Of a DNA stretch of 32,607 bases, positions 373-23,002 are shown in pieces (positions within the stretch are counted from its first letter, which is position 1; each line of letters begins with the position of its first letter). The position numbers and the translations under genes are program-made. Below the pieces are notes generated by a model. That model did no database searches, had not been told where the DNA came from, and worked only from the letters and a program-made list of their open reading frames with translations. This stretch comes from Acidimicrobiales bacterium (lineage in GTDB: Bacteria; Actinomycetota; Acidimicrobiia; Acidimicrobiales; JANYDT01), in assembly GCA_043772215.1 (NCBI GenBank), contig JAYVGK010000096.1, positions 1 through 32,607 on the forward strand, written 5' to 3'.

Positions 373-3933
<3,561 letters not shown>

Positions 3934-6263: not shown

Positions 6264-6294
6264 GACTCGAGTATCTCACTCTGCGACGAGGTTC

Positions 6295-8193: not shown

Positions 8194-10080
8194 TTGCTCT
8201 CCTCCCGGCGAGTGCGGCGCACTGACGCCAGCCTGTCGGCAAATGCCGCCATGGCGGCCTTGGCTGACCATTCGGCAAGTGGGAGCGCTGATGCGGCGTT
8301 GCTGCTCGACGGAGCACGGGTCGCTTTGGGAGCGTCGAGAGCAGAGCTCACCTTGATGGACGAGCAGGGAAGTCGCTGGACGAGCGGCGCAGGTAATGGC
8401 GTCCGAGCGGTGGAGTCGGTCATCGATTTGACGATCGACAACCCGCTGGTGGCGATAGGTGGGGAGTTGTGGGTTTCGGCTCTGCGCCGCCAACGCCCAA
8501 CCGTGGTGGACACCCCCGAAGGCCGTCTGGTGGTGGCCCCTCTGCTCCTGCACGGGTCCGTCACCGGCGTGCTGGCGGCGGTGTTCGACGAGGACCGCTC
8601 TGCTTCACGCAGCGACGATCTGAACGTGGCTCGTACCGTGGCCCAGTTGGTGGCCCTGTCGCTTGGATCGGCCACACTTTCGGCCCGGCTGCGCGCCGAG
8701 GTGATTTATCGCGATCACCACGCCACCCACGACACGCTCACCGGGCTGGCCAATCGTCTGGCCTTCGAGGCCGCCGTGGACGATGCTTTGGCTCATGTGG
8801 CGAGCTCGCTGGCCACCCCCCACCCCCGGGCCTGCGCGCTGCTCATCATCGACCTCAACCGGTTCAAAGAGATCAACACCTCCCTTGGTCATCAAATTGG
8901 TGATTCGGTGGTGGTGGAGGTCAGTCGCAGGATTGTGGACGCCCTACCGCCCGACTCGATGGTGGCGCGTTTCGGTGGCGATCAATTCGCAGTGTTGTTG
9001 CCTGACATTGGGGGGAGTGAGCCTGCGCTGGCTGTGGCGGAAACGATTCTCGACTCCGTCAGCGCAATTGTGGAGCTCGATACCATCGACGTACCGGTGG
9101 GAGCAGCCATTGGCGTGGCATTGGCTCCATTGCATGGCGGTACCCGGCACTTCCTCCTGCGTCGAGCCGACGTGGCCATGCACGCCGCCAAAGAGCAACG
9201 CCAGTCTGCAGTGCAGTTGTATGCCCCCGAGTATGAACAGGTGAGTACCCGACAACTGTCGTTGGTGGCCGATCTACGCAGGGCATTGGACGCCGACGAA
9301 CTCGAAGTTCACTATCAACCCAAGAGCACCATTGTCACCAACCAAGTGGTGGGCGTGGAGGCGTTGGTGCGTTGGCGGCACCGAGATCTGGGTCACATCG
9401 CTCCGGACGAGCTGATCCCCTTGGCCGAGCACACGGGTCTCATCACCGATCTCACCCGCTTCGTGTTACGCACCGCTCTCGAGCAGTGCGCCACATGGAA
9501 CCGCCAGGGCATGCCGCTGCATGTGGCGGTGAACCTGTCGGCGCAGGCGCTGTGTGATGAGGGCCTGCCGGCAGAAATTGCAGCTGCGCTGCAGCGCGCC
9601 GGGGTTGCCCCGCCATCGTTGACGTTGGAGATCACGGAAAGCCAATTCACGGTGGACTCTGCCGTGAGTCGTCGTGTCCTGTCAGGCCTGCGAAACCTCG
9701 GTGTCCGGTTGTCCATCGACGACTTCGGAACGGGCTACTCGGCCCTGGCTTATCTGGCTCGCCTCGATGTGGACGAGTTGAAGATCGACAAGTCATTCAT
9801 CCTCGCCATGGCTCACAGTGACGCCAACCTGGCCATCGTGCGGGCCGTGGTGGAAGTGGCCGACAGCCTCGGCCTAGCCACCGTGGCAGAGGGAGTGGAA
9901 GACCAGCAGTCCTGGGACCGTTTGAGTGTGTTGGGATGTACCACTGCGCAGGGGTATCACTTGAGTCGTCCCCTTCCCAGCGACTCGATGGGGATGTGGT
10001 TGTGGGAACGCAGGCGAAGCGGCACCCAAGGTGTTACTGGGACAGCGGCTGGCGTGGGACACTCGTCTCTTCGCCCATGA
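8194..10080 (+). CDS. GAF-like sensor / degenerate GGDEF (GGDQF) / EAL domain protein, probable c-di-GMP phosphodiesterase
   Basis: GLANRLAFE and RFGGDQFAVLL (8974-8988) mark the GGDEF fold. EALVRW (9358-), NLS, ITES, DDFGTGYS, ELKIDKSF, AEGVE and QGY are intact EAL motifs. TTG start at 8194; in-frame ATG at 8251 is an alternative. Confidence 0.9.
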   Translation: MLSSRRVRRTDASLSANAAMAALADHSASGSADAALLLDGARVALGASRAELTLMDEQGSRWTSGAGNGVRAVESVIDLTIDNPLVAIGGELWVSALRRQRPTVVDTPEGRLVVAPLLLHGSVTGVLAAVFDEDRSASRSDDLNVARTVAQLVALSLGSATLSARLRAEVIYRDHHATHDTLTGLANRLAFEAAVDDALAHVASSLATPHPRACALLIIDLNRFKEINTSLGHQIGDSVVVEVSRRIVDALPPDSMVARFGGDQFAVLLPDIGGSEPALAVAETILDSVSAIVELDTIDVPVGAAIGVALAPLHGGTRHFLLRRADVAMHAAKEQRQSAVQLYAPEYEQVSTRQLSLVADLRRALDADELEVHYQPKSTIVTNQVVGVEALVRWRHRDLGHIAPDELIPLAEHTGLITDLTRFVLRTALEQCATWNRQGMPLHVAVNLSAQALCDEGLPAEIAAALQRAGVAPPSLTLEITESQFTVDSAVSRRVLSGLRNLGVRLSIDDFGTGYSALAYLARLDVDELKIDKSFILAMAHSDANLAIVRAVVEVADSLGLATVAEGVEDQQSWDRLSVLGCTTAQGYHLSRPLPSDSMGMWLWERRRSGTQGVTGTAAGVGHSSLRP

Positions 10081-11498
10081 CCAGCACCGACCGCTCACCA
10101 ACCTCGCCCCAACTCGCTCCCGACCACTTCGATCCTACGACGGTCACTGAGTTTCGCTACCTGTCGCGACACCTCGACTTGGGAACGGGCGAAGCGGTGC
10201 TGCGATACGCGCTTGACGAGCTGGAGCTCACCGAGCGATTCACGTTCCCAGTGCCTCTGGGTGAGCTTCCGGCTGAGTTGATGCCCCGTCGGGTTGCGGT
10301 GGTGGAGCGGTTGTTGGATCACCTGTGGCTGGTGGCCGGGTTGAGTTACTTCAAGATGGCGGCCCCCCCCTTGATCCGCATCGAAGCTGGTCATTTCCAC
10401 CGCCTCGACATCGAGTTTCATCAACTGTTGTTGCGCCGGGGGCTGGGAGAGTTCTGCTTCGTCAACGGGCTCGATCCCGAACTCAGCCCCACCTACGAGT
10501 TCCATGAATTGGACGAGTCGCCAGCGCCCATCACCTCGTTGTCGTTGGACTTGGGCCCGCTGGTTCCGGTGGGGGGCGGCAAAGACAGTTGCGTCTCCAT
10601 CGAGGGGCTGAGGGCCGCAGGATTTGAGCCCACGTTGGTCACCGTGCGCCGATTCCCGATCATCGCTGATGTCATCGAAGCTTCGGGACTACCCGACTTG
10701 TCCGTGGAACGTGTTCTGGACCCAATGGTGGCTCAGTTGAACGCACGGGGGGCCCTCAATGGGCATGTGCCAGCCACCGCCATCGTGTCGTTTGCAGCTC
10801 TCATCGTGGCTGCGTGGCATGGCTTCGACGCAGTGGTGATGTCCAACGAGCGTTCGGCGTCGGAAGGCAACACGCTTTACCGCGGGGTGGAAATCAACCA
10901 TCAGTGGTCCAAGAGTGACGAAGCCGAGTCGGCCATCAGGGCAACTGTGGCCCGGATCAGTCCAGAGTTGGGATGGTTCTCAATCCTGCGACCCCTGTCG
11001 GAGCTGCACATCTCTCAGCTGTTCGCCCGCCACTGCAGTCGCTACTTCACCACGTTCTCCAGCTGCAACCGTTCGCAGGTCATGGACTCCCGCCAGCGGG
11101 TGGCGCGCTGGTGTCGACGGTGCCCCAAATGCCAGTTCGTATATCTGGCGTTGGCGGCATCAATGCCACGATTGCAGCTTGAGGTCATCTTTGCTGAGGA
11201 CTTGTTTTCCACGTCGGCGATAGATGGGTTTCGTTCGTTGCTGGGCCTGTCGAGCTGGAAACCGTTCGAATGCGTGGGGGAGACTGGTGAGTGTCGGGTG
11301 GCGCTGTCGATACTCAACGACTCCGTCGAGTGGGCCAAACATCCGTTATTGGGTCAGTTGATTCACGAGGTCCGCGCCGCAGGTCTGTGGCCCACCGCTA
11401 CGGAGGTGGCCGAGGTGTATTGCGCACACTCTTTCTCCAGCGTGCCGCAGAACTATGTGCCCATAGTGGATTCGTTCGGTGTCGATGCGCCTGGCTGA
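10077..11498 (+). CDS. murL: MurL-like protein (UDP-MurNAc-L-Ala-L-Glu epimerase family), PP-loop ATPase fold
   Basis: ATG at 10077 forms an ATGA overlap with the EAL gene stop. PVGGGKDS PP-loop-like motif (10566-10589). NGHVPA block. WCRRCPKCQFVYLA Cys cluster. Sits immediately upstream of and overlapping a MurD-like ligase, the arrangement described for murL-murD2. Assignment is from memory of the family, not a search. Confidence 0.65.
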   Translation: MTSTDRSPTSPQLAPDHFDPTTVTEFRYLSRHLDLGTGEAVLRYALDELELTERFTFPVPLGELPAELMPRRVAVVERLLDHLWLVAGLSYFKMAAPPLIRIEAGHFHRLDIEFHQLLLRRGLGEFCFVNGLDPELSPTYEFHELDESPAPITSLSLDLGPLVPVGGGKDSCVSIEGLRAAGFEPTLVTVRRFPIIADVIEASGLPDLSVERVLDPMVAQLNARGALNGHVPATAIVSFAALIVAAWHGFDAVVMSNERSASEGNTLYRGVEINHQWSKSDEAESAIRATVARISPELGWFSILRPLSELHISQLFARHCSRYFTTFSSCNRSQVMDSRQRVARWCRRCPKCQFVYLALAASMPRLQLEVIFAEDLFSTSAIDGFRSLLGLSSWKPFECVGETGECRVALSILNDSVEWAKHPLLGQLIHEVRAAGLWPTATEVAEVYCAHSFSSVPQNYVPIVDSFGVDAPG

Positions 11499-12897
11499 TC
11501 TGGCTGGCCGCCGAATCGTGGTGTGGGGGGCGGGCGCAGAGGGTGCGGCGGCGCTGCGGTTACTGCAGCACTGGGCGCCTCCCCGATCGCTGTATGTGGT
11601 GGTGGACGAAGGCGGTACCACCGCCCCCACTCGACTCGAAGGGGTGGAGGTGCTCACCGCTGGTGGCGCCGATGTTCAATCGGTGTTGGAGAACACCGAG
11701 GTGGTGCTGAAGTCGCCCGGCGTATCTCCCTACCACGGCGCTCTGCATCAGTTGCTGGAGCAGCACCGCCACATCGTATGTACAGGGGGTACTCAGGTGT
11801 GGTTCGCAGAGGCCGCCGCCCACGGGGCACTGGCGCGCACCGTGGCTGTCACGGGCAGTAAAGGCAAGAGCACCACCAGTTCGCTCATTGCCGCTTTGCT
11901 GCAGGGGTGTGGACGTCAGGTGGTGCTGGCCGGAAACGTGGGCCGCGCCCCCCTCGATGTGCTGGCCGCCGGGTTGGAGGCGGGCCAAGCCTTTCCGGCC
12001 GGGCAATGGCATGTATTGGAATTGTCGAGCTTTCAGGCCGCTGAGGTCCAGCACTCTCCGTTAATAGGTGTGCTTACGGCCTTGTTTCCCGAGCACTTGG
12101 ATTGGCACCTCACCGTGCAGCGCTACTACGCAGACAAGCTCAACCTGTTTCGCCATGGCGTGGGTGTGTCGGTGGCCAACCTGGCCAACGCCGATGTGGC
12201 CCGGTTGGCAACGGAGCTCTACAACCTGCAGGGCTACAACATCGAAAGCGCTGTTCATCCAAAGAATGGCTGCATCGTGGACGGTGACGGCGTAGTGGTG
12301 GTTGACGTCGGGGTATCGCCACTGCTCGGTCTACACAACTTTCAAAATTTGTGCGGTGCCCTCACCGCGGTCGCCGCAGCAGGTATCGACCTGAAACAAG
12401 CGGCCACCCGGGATGCCATCGCCACTGCGTTGGCGAAGTTCCAACCGTTGACCCACCGCCTAGAACCGGTAGGGACAGTGGGTGGTCGTTTGGTGGTCGA
12501 CGATGGCCTGTCCACGGCCCCGGAGGCGGCCATGGCGGCCTTGGCCACCTACGCCGACACGCCGGTGGGGATCATCGTGGGAGGTCACGACCGGGGACTG
12601 GATTATCACCGTCTGGCACTGGCAGTGTCCCAACGAACGGAGTCCACCTGGGTGGTGGGAGTTCCCCAGAGCGGTGAGCGAATCGTGGCCGCCATTGGCG
12701 ATGCGTGCACAAAAGTGGCCAACGCCAACGTGCATACGTCGTTCGTGTCGGACTTCGACGAGGCGGTAGGCGCTCTCGATGCTTTGGTACCCGAGGGCGG
12801 GGTCATCCTGCTCTCGCCGGCCGCGCCCTCCTTCGGTCGCTTCCGAAATTATCAAGAACGCAGCGCCCGCTTTCGCGAGTTGCTGGGCTTGCGCTGA
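11479..12897 (+). CDS. murD2: MurD-family UDP-N-acetylmuramoyl-L-alanine--glutamate ligase, probably the L-Glu-adding MurD2 type
   Basis: VAVTGSKGKSTTSS P-loop, ELSSFQ, FPEHLDWH and HRLE motifs of Mur ligases. N-terminal Rossmann-like VVWGAGAEG as in MurD. GTG at 11479 or ATG at 11485 overlaps the murL end. The MurD2 versus MurD call rests only on pairing with murL. Confidence 0.8.
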   Translation: MSMRLADLAGRRIVVWGAGAEGAAALRLLQHWAPPRSLYVVVDEGGTTAPTRLEGVEVLTAGGADVQSVLENTEVVLKSPGVSPYHGALHQLLEQHRHIVCTGGTQVWFAEAAAHGALARTVAVTGSKGKSTTSSLIAALLQGCGRQVVLAGNVGRAPLDVLAAGLEAGQAFPAGQWHVLELSSFQAAEVQHSPLIGVLTALFPEHLDWHLTVQRYYADKLNLFRHGVGVSVANLANADVARLATELYNLQGYNIESAVHPKNGCIVDGDGVVVVDVGVSPLLGLHNFQNLCGALTAVAAAGIDLKQAATRDAIATALAKFQPLTHRLEPVGTVGGRLVVDDGLSTAPEAAMAALATYADTPVGIIVGGHDRGLDYHRLALAVSQRTESTWVVGVPQSGERIVAAIGDACTKVANANVHTSFVSDFDEAVGALDALVPEGGVILLSPAAPSFGRFRNYQERSARFRELLGLR

Positions 12898-15800
12898 TGG
12901 CCAGCCAAGTTTCTGCTGGATGGCTGCGTCTCCTCGGACGAGTGATACGGCCGCACCGCCGTCACGCGTTGGTGTCGTTCACGGCGGCAGCGCTGGCAGT
13001 GGTTGCCACGCTGGCCACGCCACTGGTGATTGCCCGTGTTCTTGATCGGAGGGGCAACCTCCGCACCAACATCGCAATACTGGCTGTACTGGCAGTCATA
13101 CGCGCGCTGATGATCTATCTGCGGCGCTGGTATGCCGGGGTGATGTCGGCCAGTGTGGAGTCCGACCTGCGGCGCATGGTTCATGACCACCTGCAGACGC
13201 TTGATCCCCTCACCCATGACTCGTTGGCTCAAGGACAGGTGGTGTCGAGAGCCAACACCGATGTCAGCACCATTGGCGGCCTGCTGTCGTTTGCGCCGTT
13301 GCTGTCGTCGAACTTCGTACAGTTGGTTTTGTCGTTTGTGGTGATGGCCAGTCTGTCGATACCACTCACCGGCATTGCCGTGGTGATGCTGCCGGTGCTG
13401 TACGTGATTGGCGCACAACTGCGGAAATGGTCGTTCCCGGCCAACCTCGACGCGCAAGCTCAGGTGGGGGTGCTCACCACCATTGCCGAGGAGGCCATCA
13501 GCGGGGTCCGGGTGGTGAAGGGTTTTGGACAGGAAGGGCGCGAGGTGGCGCGTATGGAGGTGGCGGCTCGGCGGCTGCTCGGTAGTCGCGGTCGCGCCAT
13601 TCGAGTCAATGCCCGTTGGTCGCCGCTGCTACAAGGCGTTCCCGTGGTGGGACTGGTGGCGGTGTTGGCAGCGGGTGGACAACTGGTGGTGGACGGAAAC
13701 ATCACGGTGGGCACCCTCGTAGCGTTCGTCACGTATCTCGGCCAGCTTGGTGGTCCCATCCGCCTCGCTGGTGCCGTCATCACCATTTCCCAGCAGGCCC
13801 GCGCTGGCATCGAGCGCATCTTTGAATTGCTGGATGTGGCACCACGTATCACCGACGCCCCCGACGCTGACGTGTTGCCACCGGGCCCGGGCACCGTTCA
13901 ACTGAGTCACGTATCGGTGGTGTACCCGGGTGGCGGTACTGCTCTTGACGACGTGTCGCTGCGCATCGAAGCGGGAGAGCGGGTGGCGCTGGTGGGTACC
14001 AGTGGTTCCGGTAAGTCCACGCTGGCGTTGTTGCTGCCCCGGTTCGTGGAGGCGCAGGGCGGCAGTGTGCGGGTGGACGGCCGAGACGTTCGTGAGGTCA
14101 CACTCACCTCGCTGCGAGAGCGTATCGGGATGGTGTTCGAAGATGCATTTCTGTTCTCCTCGTCACTGCGTAACAACATTGCCTATGGGCAACCGGAATC
14201 CACCGATCTGCAGGTCCGTCGAGCGGCGCAGCAGGCTCAAGCCACCTCGTTCATCGAGGCCCTTCCGGAAGGTTTCGACACCGTGGTGGGGGAGCAGGGA
14301 TTGACCTTGTCGGGTGGGCAACGCCAACGGATCAGTATTGCCCGGGCGTTGCTGCGCCAACCCCAGATCCTGCTGCTCGATGACGCCACCTCGGCCCTGG
14401 ACTCCCAAACCGAGCACGAGGTGCATGAGGCACTGCGGGAGCTTATGCAGGGCCGCACGGTGTTACTCGTGGCCCATCGTCGATCCACCATCAACCTGGC
14501 CACGCGAGTGGTGGTGCTGGAGCACGGACGGATCATCGATGACGGCACCCACGATGAACTCATGGCCCGGTGTCGTACCTATCGTGTGTTGGTGGCGGGC
14601 GACGACGACGCCATGTCCGCGTCCGACGCTCCCCGAGCCTTACGCGTAACCGATACGCAACCGGTGCTCGACGTCCCGACGCTTGGCGCGCTGGTCGTGG
14701 GGGTAACGCGCCCAAGCGGTGGTTCGGGTGGTCCCGGTGCAGCGCGTGGGGCGGGTTTGGGGACGGGTGGCTTTGTGGCTGACACACCCGAAAATGTGGC
14801 CCGGATCAGTTCGCTTCCACCGCCGCGTGACCACCCGGCAGTTTCGGCCGAGGTAGCGGTGGCCAGTGCGGTCAGCGACTCTGATCAGTTCTCTTTACGA
14901 CGGTTCGTGCGACCCGAGATGGTTCCGCTGCTGCTGGGCTTGGGGCTGGTGGGAGTAGATACCGCTCTGCTGTTGGCCGGGCCACTGTTCGTACGCCATG
15001 GGCTCGATGCCGGCGTGGCCAAGCGCAACCTTGGCGCGCTGCGGGCGGCGTCGTTGGCGTACTTGGCGGTGGCCCTGGCCGATCTGGTGGTGTCGAGGGC
15101 TCAGACGATCCTGGTGGGCGTGGCCGGCGAGCGCGTGCTGTACCGGTTGCGCCTGCGGGTGTTTGGGCAGATGCAACGGCTATCGCTCGATTATTACGAG
15201 AAGGAAATGAGTGGTCGCCTCCTGACGCGTATCACCAGTGACGTAGACGCCTTGTCCAACCTGTTGCAGCAAGGAGTACTGAATTTGGTGGTGAATGCGC
15301 TCACCTTGGTGGGTGTAGCGGTGGTGTTGTTGCGCACCGATTGGCGCTTGGGGCTGGTGGCCATGTCGTGCTTTCCGTTGCTGGGCGTGGCCACGGTGTG
15401 GTTTCGGCGCAATTCTGAGCGGGCTTATGCCGTATCGCGCGAGCGCTTGGCAGGCGTGAATGCCAACCTGGCCGAGTCGTTGTCAGGAGTACGGGTGGTG
15501 CAGGCTTTTGGTCGGGAGCAACGAAACACCGAAGACTTCGCCGCCATGGTGCAACGACACCGACTGGCGCGCCTGGCCGGCCAACGGGCCACTTCGATTT
15601 ACTTCCCGCTGGTGGAATTGTGTGGCGTGGGATCCACTGCCGCCGTGCTGTGGGTGGGCACCCACCGGGTGTCGTCGGGGGTGATCACCACCGGAGCGCT
15701 GGCGGCATTCGTGCTGTATCTCAATCAGTTCTTTGCCCCGGTACAGCAACTGTCCACCGTGTTTGATGTGTGGCAACAGGCGGGAGCAGCCACTACCAAG

Positions 15801-16610
15801 TTGCGCGAGTTGTTGGCGGAGCAAACTGGCACGCCAGCAGCCGAGCACCCAATACAGCCGCCCGCCGACCAGCGTGCCGTTGGTCATATCCAAGCCACCA
15901 ATGTGCGCTTTGCCTACCGCCGTGGGGGCACCGAAGCCCTACGTGGAGTGGACCTCGAGATTGCCCCTGGGGAGACGGTGGCGTTGGTGGGGGAGACGGG
16001 CGCGGGCAAATCGACCCTCATGAAGCTCATCGCCCGCTACTACGACCCCACCTACGGCAGTGTGCGGTCCGGCGGCTTTGATTTGCGGACCCTCGATCTC
16101 GGTGGCTATCGACACCGGCTCGGCGTGGTTCCGCAAGAGCCGGTGTTGTTCACCGGCACCATCGCCCAGAACATTGCCTATGGCCAGCCCGACGCTTCGA
16201 TAGAGCGGATCCGCGCCGCCGCCGAAGCGGTAGGCGCTGACGAGATGATCAACGAGTTGCCTGATGCTTACGACACGGCCGTGGCTGCCCGAGGAAGGAC
16301 CCTGTCGTCGGGACAACGCCAGCTCATTGCGCTGGCACGCGCCCATCTCGTGGATCCGGCCGTCTTGCTTCTCGATGAGGCCACGTCCCAGTTGGATCTG
16401 GCCACCGAGGCCAAGGTGCAGGCAGCCATGGGCCTGTTGTCGCAGGGGCGTACCACGGTGCTCATTGCCCACCGCCTCGACACCGCTCGCAAGGCCGATC
16501 GTCTGGTGGTGATGGCCGACGGTCAGATCGTGGAAGTCGGGACCCACGACGCCCTGCTGGCGGAAAAGGGGCAGTACGCCAGGATGTGGGCGGCCGGAGC
16601 GCAACCGTAG
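12897..16610 (+). CDS. fused (TMD-NBD)x2 ABC exporter, 1237 aa, with one degenerate nucleotide-binding site
   Basis: ATG at 12897 overlaps the murD2 stop (TGATG). Half 1: GTSGSGKST, LSGGQRQR, LLLDDATSALD. Half 2: GETGAGKST, LSSGQRQL, LLLDEATSQLD. Two six-helix type I exporter TMDs are joined by a Gly/Ala/Ser-rich linker. Confidence 0.9.
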   Translation: MASQVSAGWLRLLGRVIRPHRRHALVSFTAAALAVVATLATPLVIARVLDRRGNLRTNIAILAVLAVIRALMIYLRRWYAGVMSASVESDLRRMVHDHLQTLDPLTHDSLAQGQVVSRANTDVSTIGGLLSFAPLLSSNFVQLVLSFVVMASLSIPLTGIAVVMLPVLYVIGAQLRKWSFPANLDAQAQVGVLTTIAEEAISGVRVVKGFGQEGREVARMEVAARRLLGSRGRAIRVNARWSPLLQGVPVVGLVAVLAAGGQLVVDGNITVGTLVAFVTYLGQLGGPIRLAGAVITISQQARAGIERIFELLDVAPRITDAPDADVLPPGPGTVQLSHVSVVYPGGGTALDDVSLRIEAGERVALVGTSGSGKSTLALLLPRFVEAQGGSVRVDGRDVREVTLTSLRERIGMVFEDAFLFSSSLRNNIAYGQPESTDLQVRRAAQQAQATSFIEALPEGFDTVVGEQGLTLSGGQRQRISIARALLRQPQILLLDDATSALDSQTEHEVHEALRELMQGRTVLLVAHRRSTINLATRVVVLEHGRIIDDGTHDELMARCRTYRVLVAGDDDAMSASDAPRALRVTDTQPVLDVPTLGALVVGVTRPSGGSGGPGAARGAGLGTGGFVADTPENVARISSLPPPRDHPAVSAEVAVASAVSDSDQFSLRRFVRPEMVPLLLGLGLVGVDTALLLAGPLFVRHGLDAGVAKRNLGALRAASLAYLAVALADLVVSRAQTILVGVAGERVLYRLRLRVFGQMQRLSLDYYEKEMSGRLLTRITSDVDALSNLLQQGVLNLVVNALTLVGVAVVLLRTDWRLGLVAMSCFPLLGVATVWFRRNSERAYAVSRERLAGVNANLAESLSGVRVVQAFGREQRNTEDFAAMVQRHRLARLAGQRATSIYFPLVELCGVGSTAAVLWVGTHRVSSGVITTGALAAFVLYLNQFFAPVQQLSTVFDVWQQAGAATTKLRELLAEQTGTPAAEHPIQPPADQRAVGHIQATNVRFAYRRGGTEALRGVDLEIAPGETVALVGETGAGKSTLMKLIARYYDPTYGSVRSGGFDLRTLDLGGYRHRLGVVPQEPVLFTGTIAQNIAYGQPDASIERIRAAAEAVGADEMINELPDAYDTAVAARGRTLSSGQRQLIALARAHLVDPAVLLLDEATSQLDLATEAKVQAAMGLLSQGRTTVLIAHRLDTARKADRLVVMADGQIVEVGTHDALLAEKGQYARMWAAGAQP

Positions 16611-16644: not shown

Positions 16645-18918
16645 TTAGCGGTGCGTGACTTCTTGTACGGATGAAGTGGGACCGGGGATGCTGGACGACC
16701 ACACGATGGTGCCCGCTGCGGTGCGACAGGTTGCGGTCGCTGGCGCCAAGCCCACATTGGTGGAAATCACCACGACTTTCCCGGACCGCATTCGACGCGC
16801 CACTGTGCCTGTAGTGCAGCGATATTGGAATGCCGGGGCTGACGTGGTCCAGAGATTCCTCCACCACGTGACCATGGCTGATGTGGTGGAGGGCTCCGGG
16901 TCCGGTCCTGCCAGCGGGCCCCGCCCAGCCACAGCGGCGTCGCTATCGAGCAGGTTTGACCAACGCGTCTGGCATCCCCCATTCGAGTCGCACCACGTCC
17001 AGCGCCTACGAGCCGACTCCAGCGTGGCGTCATCGAAGTAACGGCTCAAGCTCATGGGACCGAGGGGTAGCAGGCGAATACCCAGAGCCGATTCAGGGGC
17101 CGGATCGAACCAGGTTCCGTTGTCGGTTTTTGCTGACCAGACGACACCAGACCACGGTCGCATCTTGGGATCAGACTGGGGTTGGTTTGGCAACCAATCG
17201 GTGGCCATCACGTGGGATTCGATGGTGAGCATGGCGATGAATCGTTCGGCCAATTGCGGTCGACCGGTGGCTAGATACCATCGTGCCGCAGCCCATAGCG
17301 CGAAGTTGCTTTCGCTGCTCGACTCCAAGTTGTTGCCATCTGCAAATTGGGCAATGCCGGAGGCCCACGTATGTCCGTCATAGGGATTCCAGGTGCCGTA
17401 TCGATCGAGTTGGGTGCCGGCTCGGCCGGTCCCACCGTAGTCGTTGACCAACAAGTCAATGGTGGCTGAGAGCCATGAGGAGGACGATGGGTCGTGCTCC
17501 ACGATGATCGATGCAGCGGCCACCCAATACCCGTACTGGAGTTGATGATCGTTGAGTTCGGTGAGGGAGCCGAATTCTGCTGGCTCGATGACGGCCTTAC
17601 CCCACGCTGGTTCCCATCGGAGATTCGGCGGTTCTATCGGATCAATCAGTGCACGCAGAATGTCCTCGGCGCGCTTACGGTATTCATCAGCGCTGGCCGT
17701 GTCACTGGTCAGCAGACTTCCCATGGCTGCTTGGGCCACGCTCTTTCCGCCAAAGTACGAACCACGCGAAATTGTTTCGAGGGGCTCTGGCGGCGGGAGC
17801 GCTTCAGTGAACGCAGCCGCCTTTCCTGAATTGTCGAGAGCGACGGGGCGCCACAGGATGGGTACCGGCGCGTAACGCAAGGTGAGCGCCGCCCGCTCCA
17901 GGATCGGCACCACGCCATTGACCGTGGAGAGATGCCCAACCATCGATGTGTCGACAGCGGGTGTGACCGTGTCGAGTTGATGAGGTCCGAGCGTCCAGAG
18001 ATACGTGGCGGCGCGACGCGTGCGGAGTTGGGTCAGCACCTGCTCCACCGATCCGTCTTTGGCCATGCGCAGTGTCTCCGTGGTGTCGACAATGCGATTG
18101 GTGACGAGGCTCACCGCATGTTTGCGGTAGTTCTGACCAGCGTCGATTGGAACTGGCCCGGCTACAAGGCGGCCACCGGTGGCGGGCCAACTGAACGCCA
18201 TGGATGTGCCGTCTACCGCAACCCTGGTTCCGGGCGTTGCCGCGAACACCCATCGGCCCCGAGAGGTGGCAATCACGATCCCTGTTTCGAGGGCTCGTAG
18301 AACAGAAAACGCGTTTCGATCGCCGGGCCCTTTTGGTCCCGCAGGGACGGTCAAGTAGAGGGTGGCGTTTCCCTCGAACTCCAAGAAGGGAGAACCTTGA
18401 ACCATCGACAGTGAGGTTGCACCAGTTGGTGAGTCGTATCGCCAGGTGGCGTGAAACGCGCCCGCCGAGGTGACCACAGGAGGTGTAGTGAACGCCGCAG
18501 TGACCACCGGGCTGGTATCAGCGTTCCACGTACCATCGGGGAGGTTGTTCCGCGTTGGTACTGAAAATTCGGTGGTGCCGGTGGGAGCCACCCGTGCCGC
18601 CAGCGGTAGCGGGAACACTCCTGCTGAACCCTGGCCCACCGACAGCGCCGACCACCAAGTATTGGTTCGTATGCCTGCCGTGGAACCACCCCAACCTACT
18701 GGGGCTACCGGTCGATCGACCGATGGGGGCTCGAGCGCAATCCCATCCACGATCGGCGGTACCGACCGATCGGGACTGGGCGACGGTGCTGGCGTGGTGG
18801 TGGCCCAAGCAAAACGCTGCGTTGTTCTCGGTTTCGATGACAGCATCCAAACGCCGATCCCAGCACCCCCGGCCAGAAGCATGGTGGCGAGCCCAGCCGT
18901 ACAGACCTTACCAATCAT
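16645..18918 (-). CDS. glycoside hydrolase family 81 endo-beta-1,3-glucanase, N-terminally membrane-anchored or secreted
   Basis: N-terminal hydrophobic segment GLATMLLAGGAGIGVWML. LNDHQLQYGYWVAAAS matches the GH81 NDHHFHYGY block. DGNNLESSSESNFALWAAARWY matches the GH81 catalytic E-S-S-S-E block. Confidence 0.8.
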   Translation of the reverse strand: MIGKVCTAGLATMLLAGGAGIGVWMLSSKPRTTQRFAWATTTPAPSPSPDRSVPPIVDGIALEPPSVDRPVAPVGWGGSTAGIRTNTWWSALSVGQGSAGVFPLPLAARVAPTGTTEFSVPTRNNLPDGTWNADTSPVVTAAFTTPPVVTSAGAFHATWRYDSPTGATSLSMVQGSPFLEFEGNATLYLTVPAGPKGPGDRNAFSVLRALETGIVIATSRGRWVFAATPGTRVAVDGTSMAFSWPATGGRLVAGPVPIDAGQNYRKHAVSLVTNRIVDTTETLRMAKDGSVEQVLTQLRTRRAATYLWTLGPHQLDTVTPAVDTSMVGHLSTVNGVVPILERAALTLRYAPVPILWRPVALDNSGKAAAFTEALPPPEPLETISRGSYFGGKSVAQAAMGSLLTSDTASADEYRKRAEDILRALIDPIEPPNLRWEPAWGKAVIEPAEFGSLTELNDHQLQYGYWVAAASIIVEHDPSSSSWLSATIDLLVNDYGGTGRAGTQLDRYGTWNPYDGHTWASGIAQFADGNNLESSSESNFALWAAARWYLATGRPQLAERFIAMLTIESHVMATDWLPNQPQSDPKMRPWSGVVWSAKTDNGTWFDPAPESALGIRLLPLGPMSLSRYFDDATLESARRRWTWCDSNGGCQTRWSNLLDSDAAVAGRGPLAGPDPEPSTTSAMVTWWRNLWTTSAPAFQYRCTTGTVARRMRSGKVVVISTNVGLAPATATCRTAAGTIVWSSSIPGPTSSVQEVTHR

Positions 18919-18921
18919 GAC

Positions 18922-19992
18922 TTAACGCGGTTGGCTGGTGGAAACTGGCGAACTGGGTGCCACTGATGTGACCGCTCCGGTAAATCCGGTGCCCGTCCTG
19001 AGATTTGTCTGTCCCTTGGGTGCCTCCACAGTGAAGACCAATTTAGGCGCATCTTTGGGCACTGACTTCAGGTCGATCCTGGCATCAAAGCGAACGCCAG
19101 GCACTAATTCCGACATCCGTTCTTCGTCTGGTTTGATTCGAATATTGACCAGCTTGGCCGTGGTGGGACTGTGGTCGGTCCCCAAGAGCGGGACCGCTGA
19201 AATCACTGTTCCGGCGATCGGTTTTGACAACACGTCTGAAATCAGAGTGGCCCGCATCCCTCGCCGCAGAAGAATGAGGGTTGCCGGTTGCACAGTGACG
19301 ATGACGTACATGCGGCGCGGGTCATACACGGTGGCCACAGGGTTACCTGGATAGGCCACACCGCCCTCGAGTTGATCCACCGACGCAAATCGGGCGTCGA
19401 ACGGGACGGAAAGAATGGTCGACTCGTTAGAGAGGCCGTCGCGGCTGTATCCCTCTACTCGTGCAATGGGTGTTCCAGCTGGAAGATCGGAGTCGGGAAG
19501 CACTGATGCGTCGACAAACAGTTCTTTGATCACGGCGGGACGGGTGGGGGCAACCTGGACACCTTGTGCTGATAAAACACCGTCGCGCAACAAAACGGTG
19601 TTGATCGTGGTCAGTCGAAAATGGACTTGGGGCAAAATGATCCACGCCAGGAGGGCCATGATGCAAGCACTGGCCGCCAACGACATCACACGCGACACCA
19701 GCGCGTTGCCTGGGCGTGCCACCGGAGCGAAGGGCTTTTCGCTGGGATCGATCCAGGTGCGTTGCAACCGCGATGTCGGTTGTGCTCGGCGGTGCCCGCC
19801 GTACTCTGTGTAGTCGTCGAGCTCGAAGCGGTCGTCGAGTCTTGTGTACCTAGAGTTGCCGGGTGGTTCAATACTTGAGCGCCGTCGTTCAGGCGGGGCG
19901 GTTGGCTTGGTTGGTGACGCTGAATCTCTTTCAGTGAGCCGACGACCCTCTCTGAGAAGATCGGCTAGAGCGTCGTCAAGCTGCATTGTCAT
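18922..19992 (-). CDS. single-pass membrane protein with HlyD/membrane-fusion-protein-like beta-barrel ectodomain (no long coiled-coil hairpin)
   Basis: About 110-aa charged, low-complexity cytoplasmic N-terminus, then one TM helix (VMSLAASACIMALLAWIIL). Lipoyl-like and beta-barrel-like segments follow (AGTPIARVE, YVIVTVQP, LRRGMRATLISD, VNIRIKP). Overlaps the GT2 stop by 17 nt and ends 3 nt before the GH81 start. Confidence 0.5.
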   Translation of the reverse strand: MTMQLDDALADLLREGRRLTERDSASPTKPTAPPERRRSSIEPPGNSRYTRLDDRFELDDYTEYGGHRRAQPTSRLQRTWIDPSEKPFAPVARPGNALVSRVMSLAASACIMALLAWIILPQVHFRLTTINTVLLRDGVLSAQGVQVAPTRPAVIKELFVDASVLPDSDLPAGTPIARVEGYSRDGLSNESTILSVPFDARFASVDQLEGGVAYPGNPVATVYDPRRMYVIVTVQPATLILLRRGMRATLISDVLSKPIAGTVISAVPLLGTDHSPTTAKLVNIRIKPDEERMSELVPGVRFDARIDLKSVPKDAPKLVFTVEAPKGQTNLRTGTGFTGAVTSVAPSSPVSTSQPR

Positions 19993-21781
19993 AGTAAGGC
20001 TGCCAGTTTCGGACTGTCACATAGTCCCGGAGAAACTCGATTGCTTGTTCAGTAGTCGGTTCAGCTGCTTCGTTGGCGTTGGCCAGCTTTTCTGCCCGTC
20101 GCGCCCCAACTACCATCGCCACTGAAATGAAAAGCTGAACACATACGAACACCGATGCGATGATGGTGGATGTATGATTTCGGCCTGGAACTCGCCATCC
20201 GAAGATCAGTGACACTATGCAAAGAACGGCCATGAACAGATGTGGCGTGATCACTCGAAGGCTGAATTTTCCTTGTTTCGAGTTGGTCACACTCCACGTT
20301 GCTTGACGGCGAGTGAGTGTCATGAGAAAGGCACGAAGCTGCGATGGAGCGGCAGCAATCGAAACAATGATGGCGGAACCTTTGACCTTACCTGCCTGAA
20401 TGAACGGAATGGCGATGGTCAGCATATAAAAAGGAATGTAGTGAATGGCCCAGTTCCAGAGTGGAGCAGAAATTGGGCTGCGGTCAGCCAGGAGATAGAT
20501 CGGTGACATCACTGAAAAAATGGCTGTGGCAAATGCAAGTGCGTAGTGACTGGGTACTTGCATGTAGGCAAATTTCTGCGACAGTGTAAGCCGGTGTTCA
20601 GACAGCAGTCGGCCACGCAGAAGTACTTCCCAGCCCCCAGAAGCCCAACGGAACTGCTGCTTGAGAAACGGGCCGAGGCGATCTGGGGTGAGACCCTGGG
20701 TGAGAACCTTGGGCACGAACACGGTGCGCCAGCCGCGTCGATGCAATTCCAGTGACGTCCAGATGTCTTCGCTATTGGACCCAATCCAAATGCCGCCCTC
20801 GGGAAACTCGTGACCAAGCTCCGTCTTCACGGTTGCCGTATCCCCCTCCGGTAACTTCAGCTTCCGTCGTTCGCGCGGAATCAGTTCGCGCTCTGTCAAT
20901 GACTTGAGTGCGCTGCGTCGAAACACCACGTTGGTGCCTACACAGAAGGCAGCATTCGAGAGGTTTTTGGCAGGCATGATGGCTTCGTAGAACAGTTCTT
21001 GGCTTACGGCTGCTCCTTCGGCCACCATGCCGCGGTTGGTGGTGTAGTAGGTCTGCGGCGTCTGCACCATTGCAATCGAAGGATTGGCAATGAGATGAGG
21101 CAGGGTTTGGGTGAGCAAGTCCGGTCGTGGGACGTGATCGGCATCCAAGATCACCACGAATCGGCCATGGGTGCGCTGGAACGCAGTGTTTACATTTCCC
21201 GCCTTGGCATGAGCGTTGTTTTCTCGACGCAGGTATCCAACCCCGAGCAACATTGCTGCTTCTCGTAGCGATGCCTTGCGACCGTCGTCGAGAATCCATG
21301 TGTTGTGGGGGAGAACCATCTCCTGAGCGGCAATGACGGTTTTCAAAATGACGTGTTCCGGCTCACCGGCGCAACAGATGAAGACGTCGACGGTCGGCAC
21401 TTCAATCTCGCCCGTGATCAAACTTCGGCGGATGACGGCAAGGTCTTCTGACTCAGGGATGTCGGGTCGATATGACACCAACGTCGACCAGATGCTGGCG
21501 GTGTGAAGTACGACGATCGATTCCCCGATGAGGGTTGCCACCCAGAGGAGAGGGACGTTCTCGTGGGAGCGGTCGTAGACGAACGTCAAATAGAATGCCG
21601 CAGCCAGCAGCCCTGCGATAACTGCGAACTTGGTGGCCTGTTGGAAATCGCGCCACGGTACGTCGTGTTGCTCCGTTTTCGGGGGCTCGTAAAAATGGTT
21701 CGACGGCACCGGAACCTGAGTGGTGACCACGTCGGGAGTGGCTGCACTGCGACCCACAAAGGGAATTTTGACAGCCAACAT
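19976..21781 (-). CDS. BcsA/CrdS/BgsA-like processive beta-glucan synthase (GT2), no PilZ domain
   Basis: HAKAGNVN, VILDADH, QTPQTYY, FCVGTN, SEDIWTS (TED-like) and QQFRWASGGWE (QxxRW) motifs in the order seen in cellulose/curdlan synthases. TM helices flank the GT domain. Only about 45 aa follow the last TM helix. Confidence 0.85.
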   Translation of the reverse strand: MLAVKIPFVGRSAATPDVVTTQVPVPSNHFYEPPKTEQHDVPWRDFQQATKFAVIAGLLAAAFYLTFVYDRSHENVPLLWVATLIGESIVVLHTASIWSTLVSYRPDIPESEDLAVIRRSLITGEIEVPTVDVFICCAGEPEHVILKTVIAAQEMVLPHNTWILDDGRKASLREAAMLLGVGYLRRENNAHAKAGNVNTAFQRTHGRFVVILDADHVPRPDLLTQTLPHLIANPSIAMVQTPQTYYTTNRGMVAEGAAVSQELFYEAIMPAKNLSNAAFCVGTNVVFRRSALKSLTERELIPRERRKLKLPEGDTATVKTELGHEFPEGGIWIGSNSEDIWTSLELHRRGWRTVFVPKVLTQGLTPDRLGPFLKQQFRWASGGWEVLLRGRLLSEHRLTLSQKFAYMQVPSHYALAFATAIFSVMSPIYLLADRSPISAPLWNWAIHYIPFYMLTIAIPFIQAGKVKGSAIIVSIAAAPSQLRAFLMTLTRRQATWSVTNSKQGKFSLRVITPHLFMAVLCIVSLIFGWRVPGRNHTSTIIASVFVCVQLFISVAMVVGARRAEKLANANEAAEPTTEQAIEFLRDYVTVRNWQPYYDNAA

Positions 21782-21782
21782 G

Positions 21783-22166
21783 TCATCTGACCCCGGTCAG
21801 GGCCCGCATCGTGGTCAGCAAGTCAGCCAGGGTCTCTTCGTTGCGGCGGACCCGGCGCTCGATATCGGCGAAGAACAACTTCTCCACGACACTGGCTGCG
21901 GGGCTTTGGGCCCAGGTATCGCGCTCCTGGTACTCCGGAGCCTGGTATCCCCACAGTTGGGCCGGACGTTGGTACTCCGATTCCTGCGCGTGATGTGGGC
22001 CCGCAGCGTGATTCGGGTCGCCGGTGGGGTCGCCATTGGAAATTTCATCCAGTCTGGCCAAAACACGCTCTAGATGGACACGAAGAGCTTCGTTTTCGTC
22101 AAGCAGACGATCAACGAGCGAGTTCACGTCGTCGTGTTCTTCCTGGCTTGCCGGTGTGGCGCTCAT
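21783..22166 (-). CDS. hypothetical acidic coiled-coil protein (127 aa), first gene of the glucan synthase operon
   Basis: ATG ORF whose TGA (21785-21783) is 1 nt from the GT2 ATG (21781). Heptad-like LVDRLLDENEALRVHLERVLARLDEI near the N-terminus and a second helix near the C-terminus. No TM helix. Confidence 0.55.
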   Translation of the reverse strand: MSATPASQEEHDDVNSLVDRLLDENEALRVHLERVLARLDEISNGDPTGDPNHAAGPHHAQESEYQRPAQLWGYQAPEYQERDTWAQSPAASVVEKLFFADIERRVRRNEETLADLLTTMRALTGVR

Positions 22167-22381
22167 CGTTCCTGGTCCCCCGTCGGTCGACTTGATCCTG
22201 TCTTGAGGTTTTCATCGGCCAAAGCCTTTGTCCTCTGAAGAGGGAGTTGCTCGGAATTGAGTGGGCCACCAGTTGTGAGGTGAAGGGCAGGTCCGGTGGC
22301 GGGGCGCAGCAGGCCGACTTCGGGGTCGGCTGGTAAGTCGGCAGGTATGAACGCCGATGCCCCGGTTACGCTGGCGCCCAC

Positions 22382-23002
22382 ATGCCGCTTCCACCAACGA
22401 TCACGAGGGTTGAGCGAACCTTCGGATTTCTCGACATCAGTCGCTTCACTGCCTACACGGACCAGCGCGGCGACGCCATGGCCGTGGGGGCGCTGGCTGA
22501 TTTTCGTATGGTGGTGCGGGATGTGTGCAGCCGTTACGGCGTGCGGGTGGACAAGTGGCTGGGCGACGGGGCCATGTTCGTATGTGTGGAAACCGCGCCC
22601 CTAGTGCAGGCCGTGCTGGGTATCGAGCAACGCTTGTCGGAGATCGGGTTTCCCCTGCCGTTGCGCGCCGGAATTGCGTCAGGGCTGGTGATCCTGTTCG
22701 ACGGTGATGACTACATCGGTATGCCGGTGAACCTGGCCAGTCGGTTGTGTGCGGAGGCGTCGCCGGGCGAGGTGCTGGTGACCGATGTGGTGGCCCAGTC
22801 GGCCCCCGAGTGGGCCCGGAGCCGTTGGATGGGCGACTTGGACGTACGCGGGGTGGCGGCGCCAGTGGCGGTGGTGGCTCTGTCGAGTGTGTCCGAGCCG
22901 GTGAGGCCTGATCCAGAGACGCCCGATTCAGAGACGCCGCTGGCCACCCCTTCGATGACCCCTTCGATGACCCCTTCGATGACCCGGAGACCAATTTCCT
23001 AG
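22382..23002 (+). CDS. stand-alone class III adenylate/guanylate cyclase catalytic domain protein with C-terminal Pro/Ser/Thr repeat tail
   Basis: ERTFGFLDISRFTAYT (metal Asp), KWLGDGAMFV, LRAGIASGLV, GMPVNLASRLCAEASPGEVLVT match the CHD fold. No sensor or TM domain. The TAG stop overlaps the pepN stop in a shared CTAG (22999-23002). Confidence 0.75.
   Translation: MPLPPTITRVERTFGFLDISRFTAYTDQRGDAMAVGALADFRMVVRDVCSRYGVRVDKWLGDGAMFVCVETAPLVQAVLGIEQRLSEIGFPLPLRAGIASGLVILFDGDDYIGMPVNLASRLCAEASPGEVLVTDVVAQSAPEWARSRWMGDLDVRGVAAPVAVVALSSVSEPVRPDPETPDSETPLATPSMTPSMTPSMTRRPIS
22946..22985 (+). repeat. perfect 12-nt tandem repeat ACCCCTTCGATG x3 (+4 nt) encoding (TPSM)3 in the cyclase tail
   Basis: Direct reading: three identical 12-nt units at 22946-22981 plus a partial fourth. 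Preceded by a duplicated CAGAGACGCC (PETPDSETP). Confidence 0.9.

Follow-up and report, generated by a model that had tools for sequence, protein, structure and literature searches.

A predicted beta-1,3-glucan synthase module of a family 2 glycosyltransferase, a short HlyD-type protein and a beta-1,3-glucanase in an Acidimicrobiales bacterium and other lineages

The gene cluster and the proteins it encodes

Contig JAYVGK010000096.1 of an Acidimicrobiales bacterium (assembly GCA_043772215.1), analyzed here over the whole stretch of 32,607 nucleotides (hereafter, the window), bears on its minus strand a compact cluster of four genes (16645-22166). In the order of reading, these are a 127-aa open reading frame (ORF; 21783-22166) recognized by an ORF scan; a gene of a 601-aa family 2 glycosyltransferase (GT2; 19976-21781), a predicted beta-glucan synthase identified with Pfam, NCBIfam, PDB and AlphaFold2 (AF2)/Foldseek searches; a gene of a 356-aa protein resembling the HlyD-type membrane fusion proteins (MFP; 18922-19992), as judged from the Pfam family HlyD_3, hhalign and topology; and a gene of a 757-aa homologue of endo-beta-1,3-glucanases of glycoside hydrolase family 81 (GH81; 16645-18918), assigned by its matches to Pfam Glyco_hydro81C and to GH81 structures in the PDB. 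The tight packing reported in the initial annotation was fully reproduced, with the 127-aa ORF and the GT2 gene separated by one nucleotide, the GT2 and MFP-like genes overlapping by 17 nt and a gap of 3 nt preceding the GH81 gene, and independent pipelines called the same four genes on contigs of identical sequence from metagenomes (ENA ERZ27314285 plus two assemblies of Logan). The last three genes recur together in distant lineages, and we propose that they encode a machinery for the synthesis and trimming of a beta-1,3-linked glucan.

The GT2 protein matches the Pfam families Glyco_trans_2_3, Glyco_tranf_2_3, Glycos_transf_2 and Cellulose_synt, the first and the last of them above the cutoffs, and BcsA structures in the PDB (E = 2e-38). 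It stays below the equivalog thresholds of the cellulose synthase models TIGR03030 CelA (226 bits, cutoff 699) and PRK11498 (150 bits, cutoff 992). Its AF2 model (pLDDT 85.2, pTM 0.86) retrieved with Foldseek, as the top match, E. coli BcsA (9b8v_E; E = 8e-26, TM-score 0.70, 541 columns); other bacterial cellulose synthases and then plant CesA followed in the structural ranking, while hyaluronan and chitin synthases gave TM-scores of 0.35-0.50. In agreement with this, the NCBIfam models NodC/PgaC scored only about 42 bits, restricted to the QxxRW region, against 226 bits for CelA, and the protein is placed nearest to glucan synthases rather than to non-glucan ones. As modelled, the 601-aa protein is a processive GT2 of the BcsA fold, but, by sequence, not a cellulose synthase equivalog. 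Among the matches listed, its closest relatives are metagenome proteins with 60-96% identity, those named to a taxon belonging to metagenome-assembled genomes (MAGs) of Acidimicrobiales, which places the host among the uncultured Acidimicrobiia of the Actinomycetota.

All motifs of the processive synthase series quoted in the initial annotation were located in the translated minus strand and proved to be invariant or nearly so across 40 homologues: HAKAGNVN, which is strictly invariant (residues 191-198; 21188-21211), the DxD-type DAD followed by His (residues 213-215; 21137-21145), QTPQ (21053-21064), the catalytic SED (residues 337-339; 20765-20773) at the place of TED in BcsA and BgsA, and QQFRW (residues 375-379; 20645-20659), part of a clade-specific KQQ(F/L)RW that corresponds to Q(R)xRW of BcsA and BgsA. 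WSVTN (residues 496-500; 20282-20296) occupies the position of the BcsA gating loop FxVTxK, the Lys of which is not conserved in the clade. A stretch of about 36 residues, KSLTERELIPRERRKLKLPEGDTATVKTELGHEFPE (GT2 residues ~293-328; 20800-20910 of the window), is inserted between the motifs FCVGTN and SED and was seen in the GT2s of Acidimicrobiia only. The synthase was correctly annotated as lacking PilZ: no Pfam match to this domain was obtained in the GT2, and 42 residues extend beyond its last transmembrane (TM) helix, compared with 160 in BcsA and 120-135 in the BgsA- and CrdS-type enzymes. Since neither PilZ nor a C-terminal domain of the BgsA type is present, the control of synthesis is probably not exerted via cyclic di-GMP (c-di-GMP) binding to the synthase.

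The 356-aa protein matches HlyD_3 (PF13437; 34.5 bits, cutoff 22.2, 3.8e-8) at residues 195-299, and a hydropathy scan predicts a single TM helix (residues 102-120; 19633-19689, minus strand; confirmed by a sequence check) that lies between a cytoplasmic tail of about 100 aa and an ectodomain of about 235 aa. The single-sequence AF2 model of this protein is poor (pLDDT 40.5) and shows a helix at residues 94-137, overlapping the TM segment. In a profile-profile comparison with MFPs of the BgsB type, the hhalign match (probability 95.2%, E = 2.7e-8) spans no more than 82 columns, which cover the second lipoyl half and the beta-barrel (residues 191-271 in the window protein, 262-343 in BgsB); the similarity to BgsB is visible at the profile level only, and a tblastn search of plasmids with the MFP-like protein found nothing. 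The lipoyl domain had no Pfam match in the window protein, yet Biotin_lipoyl and HlyD_D23 are clear in the aligned homologues from Amnibacterium, Saccharibacteria and Dongiaceae, and the alignment of MFP-like proteins is continuous through the lipoyl region. The slot that holds the alpha-hairpin in canonical MFPs measures about 10 residues in the window protein, about 25 in Micrococcales and about 200 in BgsB. Reading the alignment together with the hhalign result, we consider the predicted ectodomain to be a barrel-sandwich plus beta-barrel devoid of the alpha-hairpin. The missing coiled-coil hairpin had been noticed before, while the cytoplasmic tail, formerly put at 110 aa, is closer to 100. 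This tail is of low complexity, gave no Pfam match to PilZ and is confined to Acidimicrobiia, being absent in Micrococcales and in bacteria of the candidate phyla radiation (CPR). Across the lineages tested, the middle protein is 243-356 aa long and matches HlyD_3, HlyD_D23 or Biotin_lipoyl (HlyD_3 in the window), and in all trio loci compared its gene lies directly downstream of the GT2 gene. The MFP subtype of the window is rare and fast-evolving, as shown by an exhaustive search that yielded 67 representative clusters, of which 21 reached E <= 1e-30.

The assignment of the 757-aa protein to GH81 is well founded, as it matches Glyco_hydro81C (PF17652) at 114.6 bits (cutoff 25.6; 7.9e-33) and GH81 structures in the PDB (6fop, 1.8e-24; 5t49, 2.2e-22; 4k35; range to 9e-14), and its catalytic residues are intact. 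The NDH..YGY and ESSSE blocks named at the outset were found from residue 456 and at residues 532-536, respectively. On the minus strand, the NDH block (17545-17553) holds the candidate catalytic Asp (D457) and the ESSSE block (17311-17325) the candidate catalytic Glu residues E532 and E536; both placements rest on the PDB alignment, the homologue alignment and the translation, and all three residues are conserved in 11/11 trio-linked GH81s. We take their roles to be those assigned to the Asp and the two Glu in published GH81 structures. The N-terminal beta-sandwich domain (PF03639) had no Pfam match in the window protein, was detected in an Actinoplanes homologue and was faint in that of Cellulomonas fimi; about 320 residues, a size fitting this domain, precede the catalytic domain in the window protein. 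A TM helix is predicted at its N-terminus (residues 5-23), and as all trio-linked hydrolases carry either such an anchor or a lipobox, these enzymes appear to be tethered rather than freely secreted.

The 127-aa ORF begins with ATG, is preceded by an AGGA element (22170-22173) and has a coding-like GC content by codon position (0.71/0.44/0.68). The ribosome-binding-site-like AGGA, the one-nucleotide gap before the GT2 gene (GTC AGA TGA C ATG), the coding-like composition and the independent gene calls make it very probably a real gene in its lineage. Nevertheless, no homologue was found by tblastn among 99 loci, including the two other Acidimicrobiia loci with the trio (L001 and L002), in which other, unrelated-looking ORFs, small or large, abut the GT2 start; any short C-terminal motif in common was noted by eye only. 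There was no significant Pfam or NCBIfam match either, and the coiled-coil nature ascribed to the protein is putative, the only Pfam matches behind it being sub-threshold (E ~0.1). Of the proposed four-gene unit, the packing is thus real, but the unit that is conserved consists of three genes, and the 127-aa protein is treated, on the basis of these comparisons, as a lineage-specific accessory outside the core.

Conservation of the gene trio and the clade of its synthases

Homologous loci were gathered from contigs encoding GT2 homologues and from one additional scan, with one genome taken per species, and the lineages found represent a lower bound. The order GT2, MFP-like, GH81 was observed in Acidimicrobiia (the window and two further loci), a member of Gaiellaceae (Gaiellales), Actinoplanes (two loci), Amnibacterium, Naasia (Microbacteriaceae), a member of Propionibacteriaceae, Cellulomonas fimi ATCC 484, Saccharibacteria (CPR) and an alphaproteobacterium of the Dongiaceae, and the trio with GH81 placed upstream was found in Moraniibacteriota (CPR). 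The junctions within the trio are typically of -4 or -1 nt across the lineages. The neighbourhood is therefore kept far beyond the close relatives of the window organism, and, judging by gene order and junctions, its core comprises three translationally coupled genes, those of the GT2, the short MFP-like protein and the beta-1,3-glucanase. Neither a second glycosyltransferase nor sugar-uptake genes are conserved alongside the module in the loci compared across lineages.

A GH16 enzyme stands in the place of GH81 in Kineosporia, in several Actinomycetota that are uncultured and in another cluster of Actinoplanes. Trio GH16 proteins are nearest to a solved endo-1,3-beta-glucanase of Streptomyces sioyaensis (3dgt; E = 1.5e-88) and also match 7eo3, 3atg and 2hyk; one of them, in addition, weakly matches SKN1/KRE6. 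GH81 or GH16 was present beside every clade member with enough flanking DNA, compared with 0/69 other GT2 loci of the same scan, and was likewise missing from the bcs, bgs and crd loci. In the context of the trio GH81 is not rare in Actinomycetota, contrary to the earlier remark that the family is uncommon in bacteria.

Several of the loci have features of their own. Actinoplanes sp. NPDC049548 (L009, 7947-17312) has both arrangements in one genome, a plus-strand trio of the GH81 type and, back to back with it, a minus-strand cluster of the GH16 type (GH16, GT2, MFP). A gene of a UDPGP-family sugar-nucleotide pyrophosphorylase (L005, 11594-12757) directly follows, in the same direction, the 3' end of a GH16-type trio, which would fit a UDP-sugar donor. 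In Naasia sp. SYSU D00948 (L092, 11903-15728), the trio is immediately followed by genes of a SpoIIE-GAF phosphatase, a second BcsA-like GT2 (638 aa, with the canonical motifs FFCGS, TED and FVVTPK), a STAS protein and a HATPase, and this set, from its gene content, resembles a partner-switching module joined to a synthase distinct from that of the trio.

For comparison with known synthases we used the bgsBA locus, the bcsQABC locus (L094) and, as a stand-in for crd, a locus of Agrobacterium tumefaciens CG920 (plasmid pAtCG920, 3063-7996; L089). In a neighbour-joining tree of 51 GT2s (100 bootstraps), the glucanase-linked GT2s formed one bipartition, supported by 49/100 replicates for the whole set and by 97/100 for the subclade of the window, and the GH16-linked enzymes were nested inside the GH81-linked ones. 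BgsA, the CrdS-type GT2 of the Agrobacterium locus and a Bradyrhizobium GT2 formed a separate clade that excludes the window GT2, the identity of which to the BgsA/CrdS-type synthases is 27.6-30% (29% over 316 aa for BgsA). The clade of the window is further distinguished by its motifs: SED(I/V)WTS at the catalytic position, where BcsA, BgsA and CrdS-type enzymes have TED; KQQ(F/L)RW on the acceptor side versus their Q(R)xRW; FCVGTN at the channel entry versus FFCGS of BcsA and FC(C/V)G(S/T) of the BgsA and CrdS types; and WxVT(N/G), with the Lys not conserved, versus FxVTxK in the gating loop. Phylogenetic studies of GT2s from Gram-positive bacteria were noted in 2023 to be few (PMC10374906).

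The operon of the window (16645-22166) has a GC content of 0.54-0.60 and a GC content at third codon positions (GC3) of 0.61-0.66, while the flanking genes have 0.62-0.65 and 0.72-0.77, respectively. These lower values make a horizontal acquisition of the operon possible, and such an origin would fit the patchy spread of the module into CPR bacteria and Proteobacteria.

Predicted product, mechanism and competing explanations

Hydrolases encoded in synthase operons match the polymer that is made, as do BcsZ and CcsZ for cellulose, PgaB for poly-N-acetylglucosamine (PNAG) and AlgL for alginate, and all characterised GH81 enzymes are, to our knowledge, endo-beta-1,3-glucanases. As the hydrolase of the module is always a beta-1,3-glucanase, either GH81 or a GH16 of the laminarinase type, the polymer is most likely beta-1,3-linked and of the curdlan type; the occurrence of two unrelated beta-1,3-glucanase families in one operon slot is the strongest available evidence for beta-1,3-linked glucose. 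The initial proposal, that the operon makes and trims a beta-1,3-glucan, gains support as a predicted function from this exchange of GH16 for GH81 and from the presence of the trio in C. fimi. We estimate at roughly 0.6 the probability that the module both synthesises and trims, by a synthase-dependent route, a curdlan-type glucan with beta-1,3 linkages, as an exopolysaccharide or envelope component of a monoderm. That the system yields a glucan containing beta-1,3 linkages of some kind is considerably safer and can be called very likely, whereas a linear, curdlan-type chain specifically is favoured with less assurance.

According to the proposed mechanism, the GT2 would polymerise glucose, presumably from UDP-glucose, a substrate assumed by inference, at the cytoplasmic face and thread the chain through its own TM channel. 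The MFP-like protein, anchored by one helix beside the synthase, would play the part of BcsB, CrdA/BgsB or Alg44, and by analogy with them its ectodomain probably receives the chain as it leaves the channel and leads it across the wall, or else lends stability to the synthase. Tethered GH81, like hydrolases of the BcsZ type, probably cuts the nascent or deposited chain, thereby releasing it, setting its length or clearing a stalled synthase, and it may also remobilise the polymer. In Acidimicrobiia, candidates for a cytoplasmic input are the tail of the MFP-like protein and the small protein encoded upstream of the synthase.

Certain facts weigh against a curdlan-type product. The assignment is drawn from the partner hydrolase, no polymer being linked to any member of the clade, and the role of the MFP-like protein is proposed purely by analogy. 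The unity of all glucanase-linked GT2s reached just 49/100 in a simple neighbour-joining tree; the identity of the window GT2 with the CrdS-type enzyme of the Agrobacterium locus, which represents the experimentally defined curdlan system, is no more than 27.6%, and the two fall into different clades; and its best curated matches are cellulose synthases. Finally, the trio was seen in C. fimi ATCC 484, whereas the strong curdlan producer is C. flavigena.

The most serious competitor of a linear curdlan-type glucan, although clearly the less likely of the two, is a polymer that contains beta-1,3 linkages in another arrangement, either mixed beta-1,3/1,4, as in the product of BgsA, or with a beta-1,3 backbone and beta-1,2 or beta-1,6 branches. 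The GH16 family includes lichenases, one trio GH16 has the weak similarity to SKN1/KRE6 mentioned above, and the BcsA, BgsA and CrdS types share fold and motifs and yet make different linkages; moreover, one GT2 alone can make mixed linkages (PMC10374906). The window synthase, however, lies outside the BgsA clade, the module has no conserved second glycosyltransferase, and the GH16 partners are nearest to strict endo-1,3-beta-glucanases. GH81 enzymes, for their part, need runs of beta-1,3 linkages. A cellulose synthase operon, in which GH81 would have a different or promiscuous role, is improbable, even though many homologues are named 'cellulose synthase (UDP-forming)' by JGI and NCBI and the top NCBIfam and PDB matches are cellulose synthases: the CelA score is less than a third of its cutoff (226 versus 699 bits), PilZ, BcsB and a cellulase are missing, the motifs differ (SED, KQQFRW, FCVGTN, WSVTN), the partner is a beta-1,3-glucanase from one of two unrelated families in every lineage, and Naasia encodes, close to the trio, another BcsA-like GT2 whose motifs are canonical.

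It could also be supposed that the GH81 enzyme serves nutrition or antifungal defence by attacking foreign fungal or algal glucan, in which case its adjacency to the GT2 would mean nothing for a self-made polymer. Genome papers usually read actinobacterial GH81 and GH16 enzymes in this manner (PMC12823222, PMC3544764); in the Frigoribacterium genome, for instance, GH81 is listed as a secreted degradative enzyme (PMC12823222). We regard this as very improbable for the trio enzymes. The overlaps of stop and start codons are kept from phylum to phylum, no GT2 clade but this one shows the linkage, sugar-uptake genes are not conserved alongside, and CPR bacteria, whose genomes are tiny, possess the module as well. 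The enzyme, moreover, is tethered by a membrane anchor or a lipid and is without a secretion-type architecture of carbohydrate-binding modules. Least probable of all is a polymer of sugars other than glucose, such as one like chitin/PNAG or hyaluronan. The fold class does hold hyaluronan and chitin synthases, and weak NodC/PgaC matches exist, but the latter are limited to the QxxRW region and far below the CelA score, the hyaluronan and chitin synthases reach TM-scores of no more than 0.50 against 0.70 for BcsA, and the partner hydrolases are glucanases.

A beta-1,3-glucan product would bear directly on Cellulomonas. The curdlan of the Gram-positive Cellulomonas flavigena has been known for decades, and we are aware of no genes assigned to its synthesis. 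C. flavigena forms abundant curdlan-type glucan and other Cellulomonas species a little of it, and each sequenced Cellulomonas genome was reported to encode two GT2s with 35-39% identity to Agrobacterium CrdS and, according to Table S2, two GH81s (PMC3544764); that 2013 genome paper listed the candidate GT2s and left the curdlan genes unassigned. Among the 120 best matches, which do not include C. flavigena, orthologues of the trio GT2 occur in many Cellulomonas species, and the complete trio, with an MFP-like protein of 243 aa, was found in C. fimi ATCC 484 (CP002666, about 3.861-3.866 Mb), where its GT2 is probably Celf_3456, as estimated from the genome position. Probably, then, the module is the genetic basis of Cellulomonas curdlan. 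A wider proposal, which we put forward tentatively and at slightly less than even odds, is that the trio represents an unrecognised and widespread curdlan-type machine of Gram-positive and CPR bacteria, in which beta-1,3 specificity would have arisen apart from the CrdS/BgsA lineage of Proteobacteria, curdlan of Cellulomonas would have its genetic basis, and a minimal MFP would act as a wall guide with no outer-membrane partner and no c-di-GMP module.

Bacterial beta-1,3-glucan synthesis is, as far as we know, genetically understood only in Agrobacterium (crdASC), and the three-gene module offers a direct, testable candidate in the culturable hosts C. fimi, Actinoplanes and Naasia. If the proposed function is true, the module defines a separate clade of beta-glucan synthases, whose motif changes at the acceptor-side and gating positions could help to explain linkage specificity; MFP-type partners of GT2s would also work, in a stripped-down form, in monoderms; and many actinobacterial GH81s would have to be re-read as enzymes that process a self-made glucan rather than as antifungal or catabolic ones. 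This suggests that beta-1,3-glucan is a common, overlooked component of the matrix or envelope in soil Actinomycetota and CPR bacteria. No description of the module was found in the open-access literature, and an earlier account in a subscription journal is possible. Two papers considered as such descriptions were set aside: that on Actinoplanes GimA/GimB concerns GH5 enzymes and a Wzx/Wzy cluster, and that on a multispecies biofilm deals with curdlan degradation only.

Genomic surroundings and relation to known synthase systems

An intergenic region of 215 nt (22167-22381), the presumed promoter region according to the ORF layout, separates the operon from a divergent gene (22382-23002, plus strand) of a 206-aa protein with a class III nucleotidyl-cyclase domain (24 bits with Pfam Guanylate_cyc and 35 bits with the C-terminal region of LipJ); in a strain variant (L099), a co-directional 94-aa ORF is found instead. 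A scan of the window for sigma-70 promoter and terminator consensus sequences gave nothing above the shuffled expectation, the actinobacterial promoter types lying outside the consensus used, and no Rfam families or tRNAs were found in the window. A GGDEF-EAL protein is encoded at 8194-10080 (plus strand), 6.5 kb from the operon. Both this gene and the cyclase-domain gene were considered as operon regulators and rejected, neither being kept beside the trio in the two other Acidimicrobiia loci; as the GGDEF-EAL gene is absent there, we infer no link between it and the operon.

Convergent with the GH81 gene, with 34 nt between the stop codons, is a gene (12705-16610, plus strand) that encodes an ABC exporter of 1301 aa, fused from two halves that each resemble MsbA. 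The exporter matches MsbA_rel best (827 bits) and scores just below the cutoffs of the cyanophycin-associated and the glucan (NdvA/ChvA) exporter models. Further on the plus strand (9936-12897), a gene of a protein similar to the UDP-MurNAc-L-Ala-L-Glu epimerase MurL (NF041275, 366 bits, cutoff 700) overlaps by 20 nt with that of a MurD-type ligase (TIGR01087, 261 bits, above the cutoff of 212); by their similarity, the two look like the alternative MurD2/MurL route for the D-Glu of peptidoglycan, known from Xanthomonadales, in a MAG of the Acidimicrobiia. Another GT2, smaller than that of the operon (455 aa), adjoins a Bax-inhibitor-like membrane protein at 5556-7662 (minus strand), and GlmS, an NAD-dependent sugar epimerase/dehydratase and a DUF1361 protein are encoded at 373-3933.

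Among the characterized systems, crdASC is the closest in its presumed product. The stand-in locus of A. tumefaciens CG920 is of the crdASC type, as the published ribosome-binding site of crdA matches the start of its 'HlyD family' gene, the published crdA fragment is 76% identical to it at the nucleotide level (E = 1e-80), and the crdS primer matches its GT2 gene. Since the CrdA homologue of this locus belongs to the HlyD family and matches published crdA, CrdA, which along with CrdC has been described as of unknown function (PMC10819609), still so in a paper of 2023, is an HlyD-type MFP, and a GT2 with an MFP is common to Crd, Bgs and the module. The statement in the initial annotation that the architecture differs from those of Bcs, Crd, Bgs and CslA-GlxA-CslZ consequently holds, but its contrast with Crd is smaller than supposed. 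Like crdASC, the module combines a membrane GT2 of the BcsA-fold class with an HlyD-family protein, lacks PilZ and presumably makes a beta-1,3-glucan. In Crd, however, the order is MFP, GT2, CrdC instead of GT2, MFP-like, glucanase; CrdA, with about 485 aa, is near the full-length MFPs of the BgsB type (410-484 aa); no glucanase is encoded; the tail of the CrdS-type synthase is about 120 aa long, compared with 42 aa in the window; and the host is a diderm.

With bgsBA of Sinorhizobium meliloti, the module shares a pair of GT2 and MFP without BcsB and a homologous beta-barrel region of the MFP. BgsB, in contrast, has 410 aa, is encoded upstream and holds about 200 residues between the lipoyl halves, whereas the MFP of the module is encoded downstream and holds about 10; BgsA ends in a domain of about 135 aa that binds c-di-GMP, a diguanylate cyclase gene adjoins, and there is no hydrolase. 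BgsBA, furthermore, requires TolC (PMC13438883). Resemblance to Bcs lies in the synthase fold (TM-score 0.70), the D,D,D,QxxRW logic and an operon hydrolase matched to the product, while PilZ, BcsB, BcsC and the GH8 cellulase are missing from the module, whose synthase scores below the CelA equivalog cutoff and has altered motifs and gating loop.

In Alg8/Alg44, the partner protein has the same topology, its N-terminal region lying in the cytoplasm, followed by a single TM helix and an ectodomain like that of an MFP (PMC8892547). The tail in the module differs from that of Alg44 in being of low complexity, without a PilZ match and absent outside Acidimicrobiia, and the polymer and the GT2 clade differ as well. 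The cyanobacterial Xcs system likewise unites a BcsA-type GT2 with a glucanase and an HlyD-like protein, which take the place of BcsB/BcsC (Maeda 2018 via PMC8892547). By that description, with which alone the module was compared, Xcs is a diderm tripartite system with an outer-membrane factor, a cellulose product and a cellulase-like hydrolase. In the CslA-GlxA-CslZ system of Streptomyces, CslZ is an endoglucanase. This system, too, has a BcsA-like GT2 of an actinobacterium and, next to it, a glycoside hydrolase (PMC8892547); the partner there, in a comparison made by description only, is the copper radical oxidase GlxA, and no MFP-like protein is described.

Taken together, these comparisons depict a module that is predicted to work like a synthase-dependent beta-glucan system and yet stands outside the Bcs and Crd/Bgs families. 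Its elements, namely a BcsA-fold synthase, an MFP that goes with it and a hydrolase matched to the product, are known from other systems, and what appears to be new is their combination, the clade of the synthase, the minimal MFP and the range of hosts.

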